A DNA stretch of 64,000 nucleotides from Escherichia phage AV101. The position numbers and the translations under genes were made by a program. The first letter of the stretch is position 1. Each line of letters opens with the position of its first letter. Below, piece by piece: positions 10,281 to 57,378 of the stretch. The notes beneath the pieces are model-generated. The model had not been told where the DNA came from, did not search any database, and saw only the letters and a program-made list of their open reading frames with translations. The DNA lies in sequence record OQ973471.1; one strand, 5' to 3'.

Positions 10281-10586
10281 GTGCAAGATCAGAATAAGTT
10301 CGGGGAAATCCCCGACGAGCGTTTCGGTGATAGCGACATGGATGGCGTGATTAACCATGTGAACAACTTCATTCGCCAGCAGGAGACTCCGACTCCTATC
10401 GGCGCAGCCAAGGCTCTTCATGATGTACTGGTGAAGATCGGCCAGCGCTCTGAAGCGGATGAAATCTTCTATAACTTCGACGACCAGTATAAAGTGAAGT
10501 TTGAAGAGAATGGCCGCCCACAGGTTGCTGTGTTCTGGGCACCTTGGCTGGGCGGCGTGAGCTGGCGTATTGAGGATGCTGTGTAA
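10281..10586 (+). CDS. Hypothetical protein
   Basis: GTG start with AGGAGG RBS; 101 aa. Confidence 0.45.
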   Translation: MQDQNKFGEIPDERFGDSDMDGVINHVNNFIRQQETPTPIGAAKALHDVLVKIGQRSEADEIFYNFDDQYKVKFEENGRPQVAVFWAPWLGGVSWRIEDAV

Positions 10587-11272
10587 TGCTGTCGCTCTAC
10601 CTGATCACGAATCTCGTCAATCATAAATTCTATATCGGTGTCACCTCAGAACCGGATAGGCGGTTGGCTGAGCATAAGTGTGGTCAGGGGAGCATTGCAT
10701 TACAACGAGCGTTCAAGAAATACGGTGAAGACCAGTTCAAGTTTGAAGTTCTGTTCCGAGGGAAAGATTCGGTTATCCTTCAGATAGAGTCTGAACTGGT
10801 CTGCCAGGAGATCCTTGACTCTGGGTGGTGCTACAACATGGTCGTCGGGGGTGGGAAGCCTCCATTGGCCACGCCTAATTCATCTGCAAAGAGTGCTGCA
10901 ACCCGCAAACGTTTGATCGCTGAAGGTAAGATTAAACCTCCACCAAGACTCACCCCTGAAGCACAAGCCAGAAAGGGTAAGATCATAAGCAAATTGATGT
11001 CAGAAGGGAAGATCCCCAAACCACCAAGACCTTCCTCTGAATCTCAAACGCGTGGAGGGGAAACTAGGAAGAGGCTGCATGCTCTTGGCCTGATAGACAT
11101 TGGTCCTGGCCGCGATGAAACGATTTACAAATGGCAGCACAAAGATGGTCGCATTGTTGAGTTAAGAAGATGCGATATGGAACTTCAATATGGCCTCCCT
11201 TCCGGTAATATAACGAATCTCTTGAAAGGTAGGGCTAAAACATGTCTCGGTTGGAGAATATTAAATGGCTAA
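10586..11272 (+). CDS. GIY-YIG homing endonuclease (Seg-like)
   Basis: N-terminal LYLITNLVNHKFYIGVT...RRLAEHK GIY-YIG core; C-terminal tandem basic repeats KIKPPPRLTPEAQ / KIPKPPRPSSESQ; TAATG overlap with the upstream gene. Confidence 0.65.
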   Translation: MLSLYLITNLVNHKFYIGVTSEPDRRLAEHKCGQGSIALQRAFKKYGEDQFKFEVLFRGKDSVILQIESELVCQEILDSGWCYNMVVGGGKPPLATPNSSAKSAATRKRLIAEGKIKPPPRLTPEAQARKGKIISKLMSEGKIPKPPRPSSESQTRGGETRKRLHALGLIDIGPGRDETIYKWQHKDGRIVELRRCDMELQYGLPSGNITNLLKGRAKTCLGWRILNG

Positions 11273-12382: not shown

Positions 12383-12756
12383 AAATTCAAATCCCTCGCG
12401 ATGCTGTAGCTATTGCGATTGACTACACCGGAAACGCCAAGCACATTACTGCCGTGCGCCTGATTCCTGAAAAGAACTGCGTCATCCCTCAGTTCCAGCT
12501 GAATGCCAATCCGTCGTCCAAAGACTTCGGCAAGTGGTTACAGGCTGCTCCGTTCCGTACCCAGACGAATGCTCAGATGTTCATCTCGGGTAAGACCCAC
12601 ACTGCAGCCCGTCTGTGGTTCGTGACCGCTGACCGTCGCTTTGTCGATATGTGGGAACGTCCGATGGGGTTCGTGAAGCCGGAAGATATTCAGCTGGCTC
12701 CTGAGCCTGAAGCTGTGGCTCCTGAAGAGGAAGCGAAAGATGCATCATTTATCTAA
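12379..12756 (+). CDS. Hypothetical protein
   Basis: ATG at 12379 overlaps the upstream stop (ATGA); 125 aa. Confidence 0.4.
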   Translation: MKIQIPRDAVAIAIDYTGNAKHITAVRLIPEKNCVIPQFQLNANPSSKDFGKWLQAAPFRTQTNAQMFISGKTHTAARLWFVTADRRFVDMWERPMGFVKPEDIQLAPEPEAVAPEEEAKDASFI

Positions 12757-13975
12757 AATGCCGACGGGCTATACGCCTCCGACTGAATGGAAGTACCCGA
12801 TTGACCTATCTGTTGACTACCGTAAACCTGAGAATCGCATGTACCTGCTCAAGGCTTGGGTGGAGGCGCTGTCCTATACAGAAGAGCACAACCAACAGAT
12901 GCGTCTGATGGACTATGCGATTGAAGTCACTGAAGGCATCAGCCTCGAACAGAAAGTCGAGCGCAAGATCTGGATGGCATTCCTGTGGGGTTGTTGCTAT
13001 AACGCTGTCGGACCGTGGACGATCTACAGTGAGTTCCCTGTGCCGCCTCAGTCTAAGGAAGAGATGCAGCGCTTCTCAGACTGGTACAACCTGAACTTTG
13101 AACGCATGCGATTCGATACCGACTGTCGCTACCGCAAGTCCAAGATGATTCCGTGTGTTCAGTCCTATATTGACTGGCTGGCTGGTCGTACTCAATATGA
13201 CGCTTTCCGTGGGATGCTGGTGTGCATCGATAAGACAGAACAATTCACCCAGCTGTGGGACACGGCGATGTCCTGGAAATACTTCGGTCGCCTGAGCGCC
13301 TGGAACTTCCTGGAAGCCCTGAACATGGTCTTCGGGAACGAATACACCATTGACGTCCCTGGCTTCATGCTGCGTGATCGTGATGGAAGCGAGTCCAACC
13401 GTAATGGCGCGGCGTTCTTGTCTAACCGTGACGATTGGGTGACTAAACACGGGAAGAAAAAGATCAACGGTTGCCCTATCACGGATGAAGAGTGTGACAT
13501 CCTTGAGGCCGACCTTGAGCAGGCGTTCCAGGATTGTGTGGCTGAGTTCGGGCACCTGACGTTCATCAACCGCCTGAACTTTGAAACCTCCGGTGCTTGT
13601 TGGCTGAAGAAATTCTTCCGACTGAAGAATACCCGTTACATCGGGTGGGACGCAGAGCGTACATGGGATGAGATCGACTACATGGAACGCGTCTGGCCTG
13701 AATACTCCTGCGCAGCGCTCTGGGAAGCCCGTTCGCTCTGGCTGCCAGATACCCTGTTGTGCGAAAAGGCTCCTGCAGGGCACGTTCCAGGCGTCCAGAA
13801 GTGGAAGATGCCTGTGTTCTTTGAGACTGGTGTTCCTCTGCATATCTGGCACCTGCAAAAGGGTACGCGCTGGGAACCATCCGAGGTATGTACGAACCTG
13901 AAGATGCCTGTGCGCAAGGTTGAGGACAAGTCGAAGTCCAGCAGCGTCAACCTCATGGCACTCTTGAAACGCTGA
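12740..13975 (+). CDS. Hypothetical protein; candidate base-modification enzyme by context only
   Basis: 411-aa ORF translationally coupled downstream of the P-loop kinase gene; no motif recognised by eye. Confidence 0.4.
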   Translation: MHHLSKMPTGYTPPTEWKYPIDLSVDYRKPENRMYLLKAWVEALSYTEEHNQQMRLMDYAIEVTEGISLEQKVERKIWMAFLWGCCYNAVGPWTIYSEFPVPPQSKEEMQRFSDWYNLNFERMRFDTDCRYRKSKMIPCVQSYIDWLAGRTQYDAFRGMLVCIDKTEQFTQLWDTAMSWKYFGRLSAWNFLEALNMVFGNEYTIDVPGFMLRDRDGSESNRNGAAFLSNRDDWVTKHGKKKINGCPITDEECDILEADLEQAFQDCVAEFGHLTFINRLNFETSGACWLKKFFRLKNTRYIGWDAERTWDEIDYMERVWPEYSCAALWEARSLWLPDTLLCEKAPAGHVPGVQKWKMPVFFETGVPLHIWHLQKGTRWEPSEVCTNLKMPVRKVEDKSKSSSVNLMALLKR

Positions 13976-13983
13976 TATAAATA
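13976..13983 (+). promoter_or_regulatory. T4-type late promoter core TATAAATA
   Basis: Exact TATAAATA directly after the stop of the preceding gene, overlapping a 10-bp perfect inverted repeat (13981-14007). Confidence 0.45.
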
Positions 13984-14011
13984 TCCTCGCCTATAAAGCG
14001 AGGATATTATC

Positions 14012-14179
14012 ATGTTACAAGATCTGCTGGTTTATGCGCTTCCTGGCGCGGTTGTCGGCTTCATTGCTGGTGCTCTGGTCTTCCGTAAACACGCGCAAGA
14101 CGGTGAAGTGATTGTTCAGAAGGGTAAAGATATCCTGGAACAAATCGAAGCCAAACTGGACGAGCTGAAGAAAAAGTAA
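14012..14179 (+). CDS. Small membrane protein (55 aa)
   Basis: Hand-translated MLQDLLVYALPGAVVGFIAGALVFRK...; below the ORF-track cutoff; its GAGGA RBS lies inside the upstream hairpin. Confidence 0.4.
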   Translation: MLQDLLVYALPGAVVGFIAGALVFRKHAQDGEVIVQKGKDILEQIEAKLDELKKK

Positions 14180-14207
14180 TCTGACTGGGGTTGCTTCCTT
14201 CAATAAA

Positions 14208-14248
14208 GGGGAATGGGTTATTATTAGCCCGTTCCCCTTTCTTTTTGC
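14208..14248 (+). terminator. Rho-independent terminator with embedded TATTAT
   Basis: Stem GGGGAATGGG/CCCGTTCCCC, loop TTATTATTAG, then TTTCTTTTT; preceded by TTCAATAAA at 14199. Confidence 0.65.
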
Positions 14249-14261
14249 AAGGATATACATC

Positions 14262-14459
14262 ATGGAAACCCAAGATTATAAGATCTTAGTGACAACTGTT
14301 GGCTTCGACGGGAAGAATCAATCTATTGCAGTAGACACTTCCGTTCTGGAGTTCAAGGACAAGAGTTCGGCAGAAACGGCGTTTGCTCATTTGGTAAAAT
14401 CACAAAGACATATGAGCACTTTTATGTGTGTCAAACAAACATACACCAAACTCTATTAA
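14262..14459 (+). CDS. Hypothetical protein
   Basis: 65-aa ORF after the terminator. Confidence 0.35.
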   Translation: METQDYKILVTTVGFDGKNQSIAVDTSVLEFKDKSSAETAFAHLVKSQRHMSTFMCVKQTYTKLY

Positions 14460-14471
14460 GAGGATTTCACT

Positions 14472-14696
14472 ATGGCAATGCAACGAATTGAAGATATGGA
14501 CTCCCTGGATATCGAATCTATGGTGTCTGTAATGCTCGAAGAAGATCGCAAGACCCCTGTGGTACAGTATCAGATGCCGGAATTGGGCGACGCTGATGGG
14601 CTGTGGAAAATGCTGAACGGCAACAAATCCTCCGGTAAGAGTGGGTTTGTCCGTGGCGAACTGAATATCATTTGTGTCGGAGGGTGTACAAGATGA
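14472..14696 (+). CDS. Hypothetical protein
   Basis: 74-aa ORF. Confidence 0.35.
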   Translation: MAMQRIEDMDSLDIESMVSVMLEEDRKTPVVQYQMPELGDADGLWKMLNGNKSSGKSGFVRGELNIICVGGCTR

Positions 14697-14911
14697 TCAA
14701 GAATACCCGAACAATGAAGCGCGCAATCGCTCACTGTGTCCATTCAGTGGCAACTATTATGTTCCGCCACCACATCACATTTGATGAAGCACTGGACCCA
14801 CAGTACCATGAAGAGCGTTGGGATTTGTTGTTAAAGAACGGTGCCAAACCTGAGCATAAAGATCAACTCCTTGGGATGACCAAGGCGCAGCTCGTCGGTG
14901 AATCCAAATGA
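14693..14911 (+). CDS. Hypothetical protein
   Basis: ATG at 14693 overlaps the upstream stop (ATGA), GGAGGG RBS; 72 aa. Confidence 0.35.
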   Translation: MIKNTRTMKRAIAHCVHSVATIMFRHHITFDEALDPQYHEERWDLLLKNGAKPEHKDQLLGMTKAQLVGESK

Positions 14912-16023
14912 TCTACCTCCTGTTTGGTGTGCCATTGGTACTGGCTATCCTGTTTGTGACCTACCACCGCAAGACCCATGAGCCGAAAGAGACTCTGATA
15001 GCGACCGCGATTGTGGTGGTGCTATCCTGTCTGATTCAGGCGGGGACTTATGCTGCGTTCTCTCTTGGTAGTTCAGGGGATGTTGAGATCCTGAACGGGT
15101 ACGTCACTGCAAAGGAGCGGAATAAGGTGAGCTGTGAGCATTCATATGAATGCAACTGCTACTACACCACATCATGCTCCGGCTCCGGCAGCAGCAAGTC
15201 CTGTACCCGCACTCGCCATTGCAGTACATGTTATGAGCATTCATATGACGTGGACTGGGATGTGTTGACGACTGTCGGTAATCTGACGATTGACCGCATT
15301 GATCGTCGCGGCCTTGGTCAGCCCCCGCGCTGGGCGCAGGTTCAGATCGGCGAACCCGCAGCCCGTGAGCATTCCTACATGAACTATGTGCTGGGTAACA
15401 AGGACTCTCTGTTCTCTCGCTCGGACCAGCAGTTTGCTGAGCGCTTCAAAGACAAGATTCCGAAGTATCCCGAAGTCTATGACTACTATCGCGTCACTCG
15501 TGTACTGAATGTGTCTGGTCTGGCGTTACCGACCACATACTGGAACGACTATCTGAATGATGTCCTGAAGAAGCTGGGCGCAGCCAAGCAGGTGAACATC
15601 GTCTGGGTTGTGACTTCCGGCCAGCCAGTTGAATACTTCCAGGGCTTGGTCTATGCTTGGGATGGTGGTAAAAAGAACGACGTTATCGTCGTGACCGACA
15701 TCAGCAAAGATCTGAAGATCAACTGGGGTAAGAGCACTTCGTTCGCTGATGGTATGCATAACCGTGAACTCCATTCTCGTAATGGCATGGCTCTCACAGG
15801 CCACGACATGGGTGTCGGTGTCATGGCTGATGTTGTCGCTAACATCACCAAAGGCTACAACCGCGTTGAGATGAAGGAAATGGAGTACCTGAAGTGGCGG
15901 GAACTCAAGACCTGGGAAGTTGTGATTGTTGTTCTACTGGGCTGTCTGCCGTTCACCGCAATTTTCATATTACAGCGAATGGAGTACAATGGTGGCCGTC
16001 GTCGTTATCCGTTTAATTTTTAA
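14908..16023 (+). CDS. Membrane protein with N- and C-terminal transmembrane segments and a Cys-rich central domain
   Basis: Hydrophobic N-terminus LLFGVPLVLAILFV and C-terminus VVIVVLLGCLPFTAIFIL; Cys cluster CEHSYECNCYYTTSC. Confidence 0.5.
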   Translation: MIYLLFGVPLVLAILFVTYHRKTHEPKETLIATAIVVVLSCLIQAGTYAAFSLGSSGDVEILNGYVTAKERNKVSCEHSYECNCYYTTSCSGSGSSKSCTRTRHCSTCYEHSYDVDWDVLTTVGNLTIDRIDRRGLGQPPRWAQVQIGEPAAREHSYMNYVLGNKDSLFSRSDQQFAERFKDKIPKYPEVYDYYRVTRVLNVSGLALPTTYWNDYLNDVLKKLGAAKQVNIVWVVTSGQPVEYFQGLVYAWDGGKKNDVIVVTDISKDLKINWGKSTSFADGMHNRELHSRNGMALTGHDMGVGVMADVVANITKGYNRVEMKEMEYLKWRELKTWEVVIVVLLGCLPFTAIFILQRMEYNGGRRRYPFNF

Positions 16024-16041
16024 TCAAAAGAGGAAGTAAGA

Positions 16042-16611
16042 ATGTCTCAATCTAAGGGTATCGCAACAGGTTGGATAGTTGGTTTGGCTTTGCTGGGTAT
16101 AGTGATTCTCGGCATCAGTACAGTCATCAGCTACTTCAACGACTTCAACCGCACTGAGCAGCAGGTCAAGAAGTTCAACAAAGACTCCGAGAACTACCTG
16201 AGCAACTACACGCTCAAAGTTCAGGAGACGGCGCAGATTCCTGACATGTATAAAGACGGCCTGAAGGAAGTGATCAAAGGCACGTTCGAAGGGCGTTATG
16301 GCGCTGATGGTTCCAAGGCCGTCATGCAGTGGATCCAGGAGCAGAATATTCAGTTCGATTCCAGCTTGTACAAAGAGATCCAGGTGGTGATCAGTTCTGG
16401 GCGTGATGAATTCCGCATCAGCCAGACCAAGAAGCTGGATATCTGCACAATATACGAAACCAAGCTGGCTCAGTTCCCTGGTTCGTTAATTGCTGGTATG
16501 TTTGGCTACCCGCGCATCGATCTTGACAAAACCTGTCAGGTGGTGAGTGATACCCGTACCCAAGCCGCGTTCGACGCTGGTATTCAGAAACCGATTAACT
16601 TCAAAGGCTGA
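16042..16611 (+). CDS. LemA-family membrane protein (putative)
   Basis: N-terminal transmembrane helix followed by a region resembling LemA (NDFNRTEQQVKKFNKD...); AAGAGGAAG RBS. Confidence 0.45.
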   Translation: MSQSKGIATGWIVGLALLGIVILGISTVISYFNDFNRTEQQVKKFNKDSENYLSNYTLKVQETAQIPDMYKDGLKEVIKGTFEGRYGADGSKAVMQWIQEQNIQFDSSLYKEIQVVISSGRDEFRISQTKKLDICTIYETKLAQFPGSLIAGMFGYPRIDLDKTCQVVSDTRTQAAFDAGIQKPINFKG

Positions 16612-16615
16612 TGTC

Positions 16616-17029
16616 ATGAGCGTGAAACTCACTGAATCCCTGACACTGGACCAACAGCAGGCTCTGTTGGATGAAGTAGTGATCTCTGCTATCAAGCAAG
16701 GGATCATCAAAGACGACATATTGATTACCCGCCCCGAGATGATCCATCATCTGGTGGTGTGCCTGGGTGAGGCCAGCAACCCTCGCAAGAAGATCGTGCT
16801 GTTTACTGATGGTGTGATCCTTCCGAGCGGGAACTGTGCGTTCTTGGATGTGGTTGAACATCCGAACACGAAAGGCAAAGAGGTCAAGACTTCTGTTCCG
16901 GTGACCCCATACACCGAGGGTGTTGATCAGCTGTCTTGGTTTGAGACAATCAACACCATTTATGTGATGGCACCGGACGGTAAACCAGTTCGGGATCTAC
17001 GAGGCGGCAAAGTAGAATCTGAAGACTAA
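16616..17029 (+). CDS. Hypothetical protein
   Basis: Start placed at the ATG at 16616, just after the upstream stop, instead of the overlapping ORF-track start. Confidence 0.45.
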   Translation: MSVKLTESLTLDQQQALLDEVVISAIKQGIIKDDILITRPEMIHHLVVCLGEASNPRKKIVLFTDGVILPSGNCAFLDVVEHPNTKGKEVKTSVPVTPYTEGVDQLSWFETINTIYVMAPDGKPVRDLRGGKVESED

Positions 17030-37432: not shown

Positions 37433-37482
37433 AATCTAGTCCTAAATAGCCATAACACTCTATCTATTTAAGGGCTGAGACC

Positions 37483-57336: not shown

Positions 57337-57344
57337 TATAAATA
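57337..57344 (+). promoter_or_regulatory. T4-type late promoter core TATAAATA
   Basis: Exact TATAAATA about 35 nt upstream of the plus-strand structural-like gene at 57379, in a divergent intergenic region. Confidence 0.5.
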
Positions 57345-57378
57345 ATAACAGTTATTTTATTTAAGTGGAGTCCTCATC

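Follow-up and report, generated by a model that had tools for sequence, protein, structure and literature searches.

A T4-type late-promoter box within a predicted hairpin over the ribosome-binding site of a small membrane-protein gene in an Ackermannviridae phage

Introduction

Positions 13976–14179 of a 64,000-nucleotide stretch of Escherichia phage AV101 (sequence record OQ973471.1), designated as the window in this report, carry a late-promoter box, a hairpin and a gene coding for a 55-amino-acid membrane protein. The surrounding region (13400–14800) is 98.6% identical to Enterobacter phage fGh-Ecl02 and matches 236 phage records, nearly all of which belong to Ackermannviridae (Kuttervirus, Limestonevirus and their relatives); judged by this similarity, the window is that of a Kuttervirus-like (ViI-like) Ackermannviridae phage. 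An earlier note on this DNA, made from the letters alone, proposed that late-stage expression is coupled here to structure-dependent translational control of a peptide that is possibly holin- or spanin-like. In this study, we characterized the elements of the locus, their predicted folding energies and their conservation. The results point, with a probability that we put at about 0.68, to a promoter-dependent translational switch of the type found at the T4 genes e, soc, 49 and I-TevI.

In the known precedents (T4 e, soc, 49, I-TevI, I-TevII, I-TevIII and segB, and Aeh1 mobE), a helix covers the Shine-Dalgarno (SD) sequence/AUG in long early/middle transcripts, and the 5′ strand of this helix comes from the late promoter (PMC3014915, PMC2988022). 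The late transcripts lack the 5′ strand and are translated well, while lysozyme production from the long transcripts is ~100-fold lower (PMC3014915). The T4 late box occupies positions −13 to −6 (PMC2988020). Homologues of gp55, gp33 and gp45 are present in ViI-like phages (PMC3121705, PMC3184105, PMC10892097).

Results and discussion

Organization of the locus

The features of the locus are as follows (coordinates of the window, strand in parentheses).

12740–13975 (+): upstream gene, 411 amino acids, amino acid:DNA transferase (aGPT-Pplase2); Pfam PF18724 ADDT, E = 4.5e-60
13976–13983 (+): T4-type late-promoter box TATAAATA, exact match; its last 4 nucleotides form the base of the hairpin 5′ arm
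13980–13990 (+): hairpin 5′ arm AATATCCTCGC, holding the anti-SD sequence TCCTC; from sequence and fold
13991–13997 (+): hairpin loop CTATAAA; from the fold and the relatives
13998–14008 (+): hairpin 3′ arm GCGAGGATATT, holding the ribosome-binding site GAGGA (14000–14004); from sequence and fold
13962–14022 (+): extended helix possible only in read-through RNA, 24 pairs in total; from minimum-free-energy folds
13987–13991 (+): predicted late transcription start, +1 near 13989; from T4 box geometry (PMC2988020)
14012–14179 (+): gene for the 55-amino-acid membrane protein; phrog_3879, E = 7.5e-32
14205–14250 (+): intrinsic terminator, a 16-pair stem followed by a T-run, closing the unit; from a terminator scan and annotated as a factor-independent terminator in LIMEstone1

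The TGA stop codon of the upstream gene occupies 13973–13975 and TATAAATA begins at the next nucleotide, just as the earlier note had read this junction. That note also described a perfect 10-bp hairpin at 13981–14007, formed by the inverted repeat ATATCCTCGC/GCGAGGATAT (13981–13990/13998–14007). Its position and its perfection stand, but the full perfect stem is 11 bp long (13980–13990/13998–14008), with a 7-nucleotide (nt) loop. The ribosome-binding site GAGGA was correctly placed within the repeat; it lies in the 3′ arm, 7 nt from the ATG at 14012. Outside the stem, 13962–13977, at the 3′ end of the upstream gene, pairs with 14008–14022, which sets the AUG (14012–14014) opposite the stop-codon region (13970–13973). 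The outer strand of this extended helix consists of the last 14 nt of the upstream gene. An Rfam search with the hairpin returned no family, and all matches were far under the threshold.

The open reading frame (ORF) at 14012–14179 behaves as a true coding gene, as the earlier note supposed for its 55-amino-acid membrane peptide. Among nine relatives, the variable sites are distributed 3/3/28 by codon position, synonymous differences are dominant, and the product has one hydrophobic segment. The GenBank records of relatives annotate the ORF as 'putative membrane protein'. Judged from its sequence, 13976–14179 would be a self-contained 204-bp late-gene cassette within an early or middle operon.

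For the orthologous locus of LIMEstone1 (GenBank HE600015, ORF191 locus; ~91% nucleotide identity), the annotation gives a 'putative late promoter' and describes the ORF as having a 'putative transmembrane domain and coiled coil'; it also places a factor-independent terminator there. The promoter, the ORF and the terminator are hence already in the public annotation, but the hairpin is not; the ORF191 annotation mentions neither the hairpin nor sequestration of the ribosome-binding site nor the relation between the start site and the stem.

Fold strength and opening energies

Apart from the hairpin at 13980–14008, the 64-kb window has no perfect stem of 10 bp or more with a loop of 3–10 nt; first-order Markov simulations yield 0.77 of them on average over the whole window. 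As RNA it folds at −27.5 kcal/mol, with z = −5.4 against dinucleotide shuffles. Read-through RNA is likewise more stable than its shuffles (z = −3.8 to −5.4), whereas the late leader from 13989 is like them (z = +1.1). Unpairing the 20-nt initiation region is predicted to cost 21.9 kcal/mol in read-through RNA versus 5.0 kcal/mol in late RNA, and the latter value stays at 4.1–5.3 kcal/mol when +1 is shifted by 2 nt either way. The background at random window positions is 8.8 ± 3.3 kcal/mol; only 2 of 996 positions reach 21.9 kcal/mol (99.8% lie lower), and one of these two is a sister hairpin described below. Opening energies above 18.6 kcal/mol were found for 3 of ~12 late-box/gene pairs, compared with 7 of the 996 random positions.

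A stable stem that begins right after a stop codon could also mark the end of an operon, as a weak intrinsic terminator, a 3′-end stabilizer or a host RNase III site, with occlusion of the ribosome-binding site being incidental; the ~24-pair helix with its small bulges is a conceivable RNase III substrate. We regard such an end signal as improbable. No U-tract follows the stem (UAUCAUGUUAC), and the terminator scan missed the hairpin yet called the real terminator at 14205. The LIMEstone1 annotators placed no terminator here, and relatives without the small gene use a terminator of the 14205 type directly after the upstream gene. Moreover, the 5′ arm is specifically complementary to the SD sequence.

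High predicted opening energies (18–25 kcal/mol) also occur at ~10680–10700 (+), 56009 (+), 41033 (+), 47928 (−) and 25929 (+), the site near 10697 being located within ORF 10586–11272. By these predictions, the five positions indicate other strong local RNA structures.

The late-promoter motif and the predicted start site

The window has two exact copies of TATAAATA, a number that alone carries no significance (two or more copies were present in 16 of 100 shuffles). For the enrichment analysis we used instead the core TAAATA (NNTAAATA in the LIMEstone1 annotation), of which the two strands of the window hold 18 copies. At least 9 of the 18 (12 by inspection) lie 20–45 nt 5′ of a start codon on the coding strand (binomial P = 1.7e-11), and only three fall within coding sequence, though the window is 91% coding. 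The genes behind these boxes include the baseplate and head genes gp48, gp54, gp2, gp4 and gp5. The sequence data thus support TATAAATA/TAAATA as the late-promoter motif of this phage family. As for the machinery, a gp33-like gene is present in the window at 59707–59952 (−) (phrog_254, E = 2.8e-20); the gp55 and gp45 homologues, known for ViI-like phages from the literature, lie outside it.

From the T4 box geometry we infer that late transcription would start near 13989, the sixth nucleotide past the box, so that only 2–4 nt of the 11-nt 5′ arm would be retained. Because this geometry puts +1 inside the 5′ arm, the late transcript should be unable to form the hairpin; and because the late RNA would lack the 5′ strand, the structure is expected to control read-through transcripts and not the late one. 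The coupling of late expression to structure-dependent control proposed in the earlier note is therefore retained in part: the late box and the buried ribosome-binding site are there, but the structure would act on the other class of transcript.

The literal form of that proposal places the hairpin in the late transcript, where translation would be gated by melting through temperature, a trans-acting factor or a helicase. A start at or upstream of 13980 would indeed include the hairpin in the late mRNA, but a start upstream of 13980 falls in or before the box and is incompatible with the −13 to −6 geometry (PMC2988020). The spacing between the end of the box and the ATG (28 nt) matches the 26–39 nt of the other late genes of the phage (gp48, gp54, gp2, gp4 and RuvC genes), and the T4 precedents rely on late transcripts that lack the 5′ strand (PMC3014915). 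We therefore consider late gating by the hairpin very improbable.

Several further features of the boxes were noted. They often carry a conserved extension, approximately TAAATA-(C/G)CCCATA(A)C or ...TAACA... (at 3501, 3996, 22937, 37443 and 61122(−), and at the late promoters of LIMEstone1, locus L027), while the first two box positions vary (GG, CC, CT, CG and TA); the Ackermannviridae late-promoter consensus may therefore be longer than the T4 box. Back-to-back boxes on opposite strands at 37443–37475 and 57337–57368 form divergent late promoters for gp48/gp4 and gp54/gp2, respectively, and the paired divergent boxes are partly complementary to one another. A TAAATA box at 6047–6052 (+) lies 39 nt 5′ of the DNA polymerase gene (6092–9091, phrog_262), which is unexpected for a replication gene; it is either a chance match or an additional late promoter.

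Two sister sites in the window

Every TAAATA box in the window was folded with its context. Two further sites were found at which the late box starts the 5′ arm of a hairpin and the 3′ arm abuts or includes the ATG.

3501–3536 (+): sister site 1, box TAAATA at 3501–3506, 14-pair hairpin 3501–3514/3521–3534; the 3′ arm ends in the ATG of gene 3534–3998
61076–61122 (−): sister site 2, box TAAATA at 61122–61117, 13–14-pair hairpin 61122–61110/61092–61080; the hairpin ends 1 nt before the ATG (61078)

The gene at sister site 1 (3534–3998) codes for a 154-amino-acid ART-PolyVal ADP-ribosyltransferase (Pfam PF18760). Its hairpin folds at −21.9 kcal/mol (z = −7.0), and opening the initiation region is predicted to cost 22.3 kcal/mol in read-through RNA versus 8.9 kcal/mol in late RNA. 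Across eight relatives, the stem is kept and the loops vary. The gene at sister site 2 (60488–61078, −) codes for a RuvC-like Holliday-junction resolvase (phrog_159, E = 1.9e-53); its hairpin folds at −20.9 kcal/mol (z = −4.8), with opening energies of 18.7 and 5.6 kcal/mol in read-through and late RNA, respectively, and the LIMEstone1 annotation has a late promoter at this site. ORF 61130–61732 was once taken for the RuvC gene and was rejected after the hairpin scan placed the resolvase at 60488–61078. For six other late-box genes, the corresponding energies are 8–16 kcal/mol (read-through) and 3.6–8 kcal/mol (late).

Sister site 2 shows a compensatory change: an A-U pair is replaced by U-A in relative L050 (CCCATATC/GATATGGG) compared with the others (CCCATAAC/GTTATGGG). 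In addition, the lineage of the window carries a matched G/C insertion in both arms. These changes were read directly from the sequences without pair counting, since MAFFT misplaced the paired G/C insertion.

At both sister sites, the 5′ arm coincides with the extended promoter consensus TAAATA-sCCCATAmC, which is also found at gp48 and ORF 4035, and it seems from the sequences that the 3′ arm has evolved to match this promoter-derived 5′ arm. The 13976 site differs in this respect. Its post-box sequence TCCTCGC deviates from the extended consensus and complements the SD sequence; the anti-SD sequence is specific to this site, as other late promoters of the phage have sCCCATAAC at the same position.

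Conservation among relatives

In all relatives carrying the ORF, the box TATAAATA is invariant and both the stem and the extended helix are kept. In the hairpin helix, 98.6% of the alignment cells of the relatives are paired, G-U wobbles included. In the extended helix, the value is 94.6% (seven distinct relatives), compared with 23–53% when the partners are slid by 1–3 columns. Variation in the hairpin at the 13976 site is limited to two single changes giving G-U and one mismatch, a pattern that is compatible with an RNA structure on the + strand, without statistical proof. The version in the window is the most stable, with G-C where most relatives have G-U. The predicted difference in opening energy between read-through and late RNA is also found in Vi01 (17.3 versus 3.5 kcal/mol), LIMEstone1 (12.4 versus 4.1 kcal/mol) and relative L012 (14.3 versus 5.3 kcal/mol).

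The same variation bears on the idea that the repeat acts as DNA: a dimeric protein would bind it as an operator and so repress or time the promoter, in the manner of I-TevI at its own late promoter. The overlap of the repeat with the promoter box and the T4 operator sites that overlap late promoters (PMC2988022) speak for it. The changes in relatives, however, give G-U pairs in the + strand RNA; at these positions, neither a DNA palindrome nor the opposite strand would be matched. The three palindromes share only the promoter motif, and their inner sequences are unrelated, so no single protein could recognize all three. At every one of them, the 3′ arm is positioned over the SD/AUG. An operator is the least probable of the readings that we weighed.

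Relatives L015, L018, L020, L021 and L026 lack exactly the segment from TATAAATA to the ORF stop; there, the terminator comes immediately after the stop codon of the upstream gene. Because some Ackermannviridae are cleanly without it, the unit appears to act as a discrete cassette. The last codons of the upstream gene read LLKR with the cassette and LMKK without it; from the sequences, this difference may represent co-adaptation with the extended helix.

A distant homologue with the same architecture

When 1.8 billion representative proteins were searched with a profile, 25 relatives of the small protein came up, 41–84 amino acids long and with the motif VVGF[IV]AGALVFR[KN][HN]A followed by a short coiled coil; those tested all belong to phrog_3879. 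One of them, an 84-amino-acid phrog_3879 homologue with 41% identity (E = 9e-15 to the family), is coded by Erwinia phage FBB1 (L052, MT920315), a genuine T4-like phage of Straboviridae, Tevenvirinae. Its gene sits 3′ of a tRNA cluster, and the regulatory region (1472–1506 of MT920315) has the layout TATAAATA-CTCTTGTT-AATT-AACAGGAG-GAATT-ATG, i.e., a late box followed by an 8-bp hairpin over AGGAGG. The predicted opening energy is 11.2 kcal/mol in read-through RNA versus 1.8 kcal/mol in late RNA. The regulatory sequences of FBB1 and the window are unrelated, while their architecture is alike. A tblastn search with the FBB1 homologue found only itself.

A proposed promoter-dependent translational switch

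Read-through from upstream into the small ORF is plausible. The upstream gene codes for a thymidine hypermodification enzyme, whose fGh-Ecl02 ortholog is annotated as similar to aGPT-Pplase clade 2, and its 17-nt overlap with the ORF before it points to an operon. The cassette is hosted by a long + strand gene array that also contains four tRNAs, DNA polymerase, homing-endonuclease-like genes and then rIIA/rIIB. A sigma-70-like site is present at 9088–9117, and consensus scans gave no strong + strand terminator before 14205.

We propose that the switch would work in two phases. Before late transcription, read-through from the DNA-modification gene would yield an RNA with both hairpin arms. The 11-bp stem, extended to ~24 pairs, would bury GAGGA and the AUG, and the membrane protein would be absent or present in trace amounts. 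Late in infection, a polymerase of the gp55/gp33/sliding-clamp type would start at TATAAATA, ~6 nt past the box and inside the 5′ arm. The resulting late mRNA, without the anti-SD strand, would have an open initiation region, be translated, and end at 14205–14250.

A number of points weigh against this switch. Among the relatives, no double (compensatory) changes were found in the hairpin at the 13976 site, so there is no covariation support, and a shuffle control for covariation was uninformative at this site as its columns are nearly invariant. Conservation of the hairpin could partly reflect constraint on the promoter box and the SD sequence. In the divergent Ackermannviridae homologues L067 and L068, which lie at another genomic position and have a late-like box, the opening energies are 9.9 versus 6.2 and 8.7 versus 10.2 kcal/mol, i.e., occlusion differs little or not at all between the two RNAs; not every member of the phrog_3879 family thus has the hairpin. 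Our literature search found no transcriptome, transcription start site or translation data for Ackermannviridae, and according to the CBA120 paper, the late recognition sequence of ViI-like phages was not identified. The TAAATA ahead of the DNA polymerase gene makes clear that a box is no proof of exclusively late expression. Finally, the stop codon of the upstream gene lies 4 nt from the 5′ arm, and terminating ribosomes would transiently melt the arm, so that the silencing may be leaky or the structure may serve for coupling.

The last point leads to the most serious of the alternatives, translational coupling, in which ribosomes terminating at the upstream TGA open the hairpin, output of the protein from read-through transcripts scales with how much the DNA-modification gene is translated, and extra product comes from the late promoter. 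The stop codon (13973–13975) pairs with the AUG in the extended helix, and a terminating ribosome would cover most of 13976–13988; both sister hairpins also begin 7–8 nt past an upstream stop codon, although so dense a genome (91% coding) would be expected to have such short spacings anyway. What coupling leaves unexplained is that a late box forms part of the 5′ arm at three sites and at the FBB1 homologue, and T4 sites of the same design act as silencers with a ~100-fold reduction (PMC3014915). A hairpin with a 7-nt loop should presumably also refold fast after the ribosome leaves. Taken together, we consider coupling unlikely as the main function and treat it as a modifier of the promoter-dependent switch.

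The closest known counterparts of this switch are T4 e and soc (PMC3014915, in which McPheeters et al. 1986 is reviewed). There too, TATAAATA lies just upstream and encodes the 5′ strand of a helix over the SD/AUG; the late gene is embedded in an early/middle transcription unit, as is probable for the 55-amino-acid gene. The two systems differ in phage family (Straboviridae versus Ackermannviridae), and the regulated genes are unrelated. T4 e has two late boxes and the 13976 site one; unlike in e and soc, the helix at the 13976 site is predicted to recruit the stop-codon region of the upstream gene. The logic of a hairpin plus a late promoter is also common to T4 gene 49 (endonuclease VII), I-TevI/II/III, segB and Aeh1 mobE (PMC2988022). 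The RuvC-like resolvase at sister site 2 is a functional analogue of the gene 49 product; RuvC-like proteins and endonuclease VII have different folds, their genes are not homologous, and only the regulatory design is common to them.

The proposed switch is a new instance of an established T4 device, now attached to another gene and in another phage family, and involves no new principle of mechanism. It would extend the T4 switch with a late promoter in a hairpin to Ackermannviridae, where late-promoter recognition had lacked definition according to the CBA120 paper. The three concrete sites provide a strong in silico handle on late transcript starts in this family. They also single out three genes whose early translation is apparently avoided, coding for a tiny membrane protein, a RuvC-like resolvase and an ADP-ribosyltransferase, which gives a prior for function.

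The 55-amino-acid protein and its possible role in lysis

Topology prediction, which the earlier note had named as a check, gave a single-pass protein with one hydrophobic membrane segment at residues 5–24. There is no K/R on the N side of the segment, and four K/R occur in the 15 residues after it; because K/R lie on the C side only, the predicted topology is N-out/C-in. The 31-amino-acid tail is a charged, amphipathic helix, with eight K/R and seven D/E in the last 31 residues. The product would thus be small and bitopic, anchored in the inner membrane with its amphipathic helix in the cytoplasm. The LIMEstone1 annotation marks confirmed virion proteins and does not give this one as structural.

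No Pfam family matched at threshold: ZapG/YhcB-like models scored 16–21 bits against a cut-off of 33.5, and DUF948, YtxH, glycine-zipper and the RNase Y N-terminus were also below. To judge from the sequence, these similarities to anchored coiled-coil proteins are an architectural resemblance and not membership. ZapG/YhcB, DUF948, YtxH and small single-pass holins/antiholins all resemble the protein in having one membrane segment and a highly charged C-terminus.

A spanin was considered and rejected. The tail, at 31 amino acids, is short and predicted to be cytoplasmic, in contrast to the N-in/C-out anchor and long periplasmic coiled coil of an i-spanin, there is no adjacent or embedded lipobox ORF, and no gene for a lipoprotein partner lies nearby, so the spanin-like role suggested in the earlier note was abandoned. 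Spanins are annotated elsewhere in Vi01-like genomes (PMC10892097).

The generic features of a holin are present (55 amino acids, one membrane segment, a charged C-terminus and a late promoter), but they are common to many non-holins. Unlike holins and antiholins, the protein has no family-threshold match to them and no adjacent endolysin gene in this phage; only phrog_3879 matched, and the genes around it in the window code for small proteins without functional assignment. In the literature, we found no identified holin for Ackermannviridae, and the AG3 and CBA120 papers report none (PMC3121705, PMC3184105). CBA120 shows lysis inhibition (CBA120 paper).

Further insight into function came from one lineage of environmental viral contigs, in which a 43-amino-acid homologue is located in a conserved block (L142 3667–5666; loci L069–L212). 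The environmental loci are closely interrelated and count as one evolutionary observation. The genes of the block are, in order:

tail fibre
64-amino-acid ORF
43-amino-acid phrog_3879 homologue
244-amino-acid protein
95-amino-acid HExxH protein
126-amino-acid holin-family protein
107-amino-acid membrane protein

Of the loci with enough sequence, 75 of 76 and 74 of 74 have the neighbours of the block. The 244-amino-acid protein has a lipobox, a coiled coil and C-terminal membrane segments, i.e., an architecture like that of a unimolecular spanin, and the 126-amino-acid protein belongs to a holin family (phrog_6384, E = 3.4e-6). By its composition, the block looks like an undescribed lysis cassette, which makes a holin or lysis-accessory role of the small protein possible. 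The separate holin-family gene suggests that the phrog_3879 protein is an accessory there and probably not the holin itself.

Our best guess at the function, which is tentative, is that of a protein assisting lysis or its timing that would do harm if made early. The broader proposal that phrog_3879 is a widespread class of tiny lysis or lysis-timing proteins, maybe a holin or antiholin-like component of ViI-like phages, whose lysis inhibition resembles that of T4, seems doubtful. If the phrog_3879 protein is toxic, its independent retention behind a late promoter and a hairpin in Ackermannviridae and in a member of Tevenvirinae would follow. As a broad family of phage proteins of 41–84 amino acids, phrog_3879 is a candidate for the incompletely known lysis genes of ViI-like therapeutic phages.

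Neighbouring genes

The stretch 14908–17029 (+), three genes downstream of the cassette, is also of note. One of its genes codes for a cysteine-rich 371-amino-acid protein with membrane segments at both ends, whose ortholog in Vi01 bears the gene name 'host lysis protein'. Another codes for a 189-amino-acid protein that is LemA-like according to the annotation of a relative. The remaining product is noted in a relative as similar to 'rIIB lysis inhibitor', and rIIA and rIIB come next. These annotations point to a possible link of 14908–17029 with membranes or lysis. The four tRNA genes lie at 230–1200 (+), where the window begins (Rfam RF00005, 56–76 bits).

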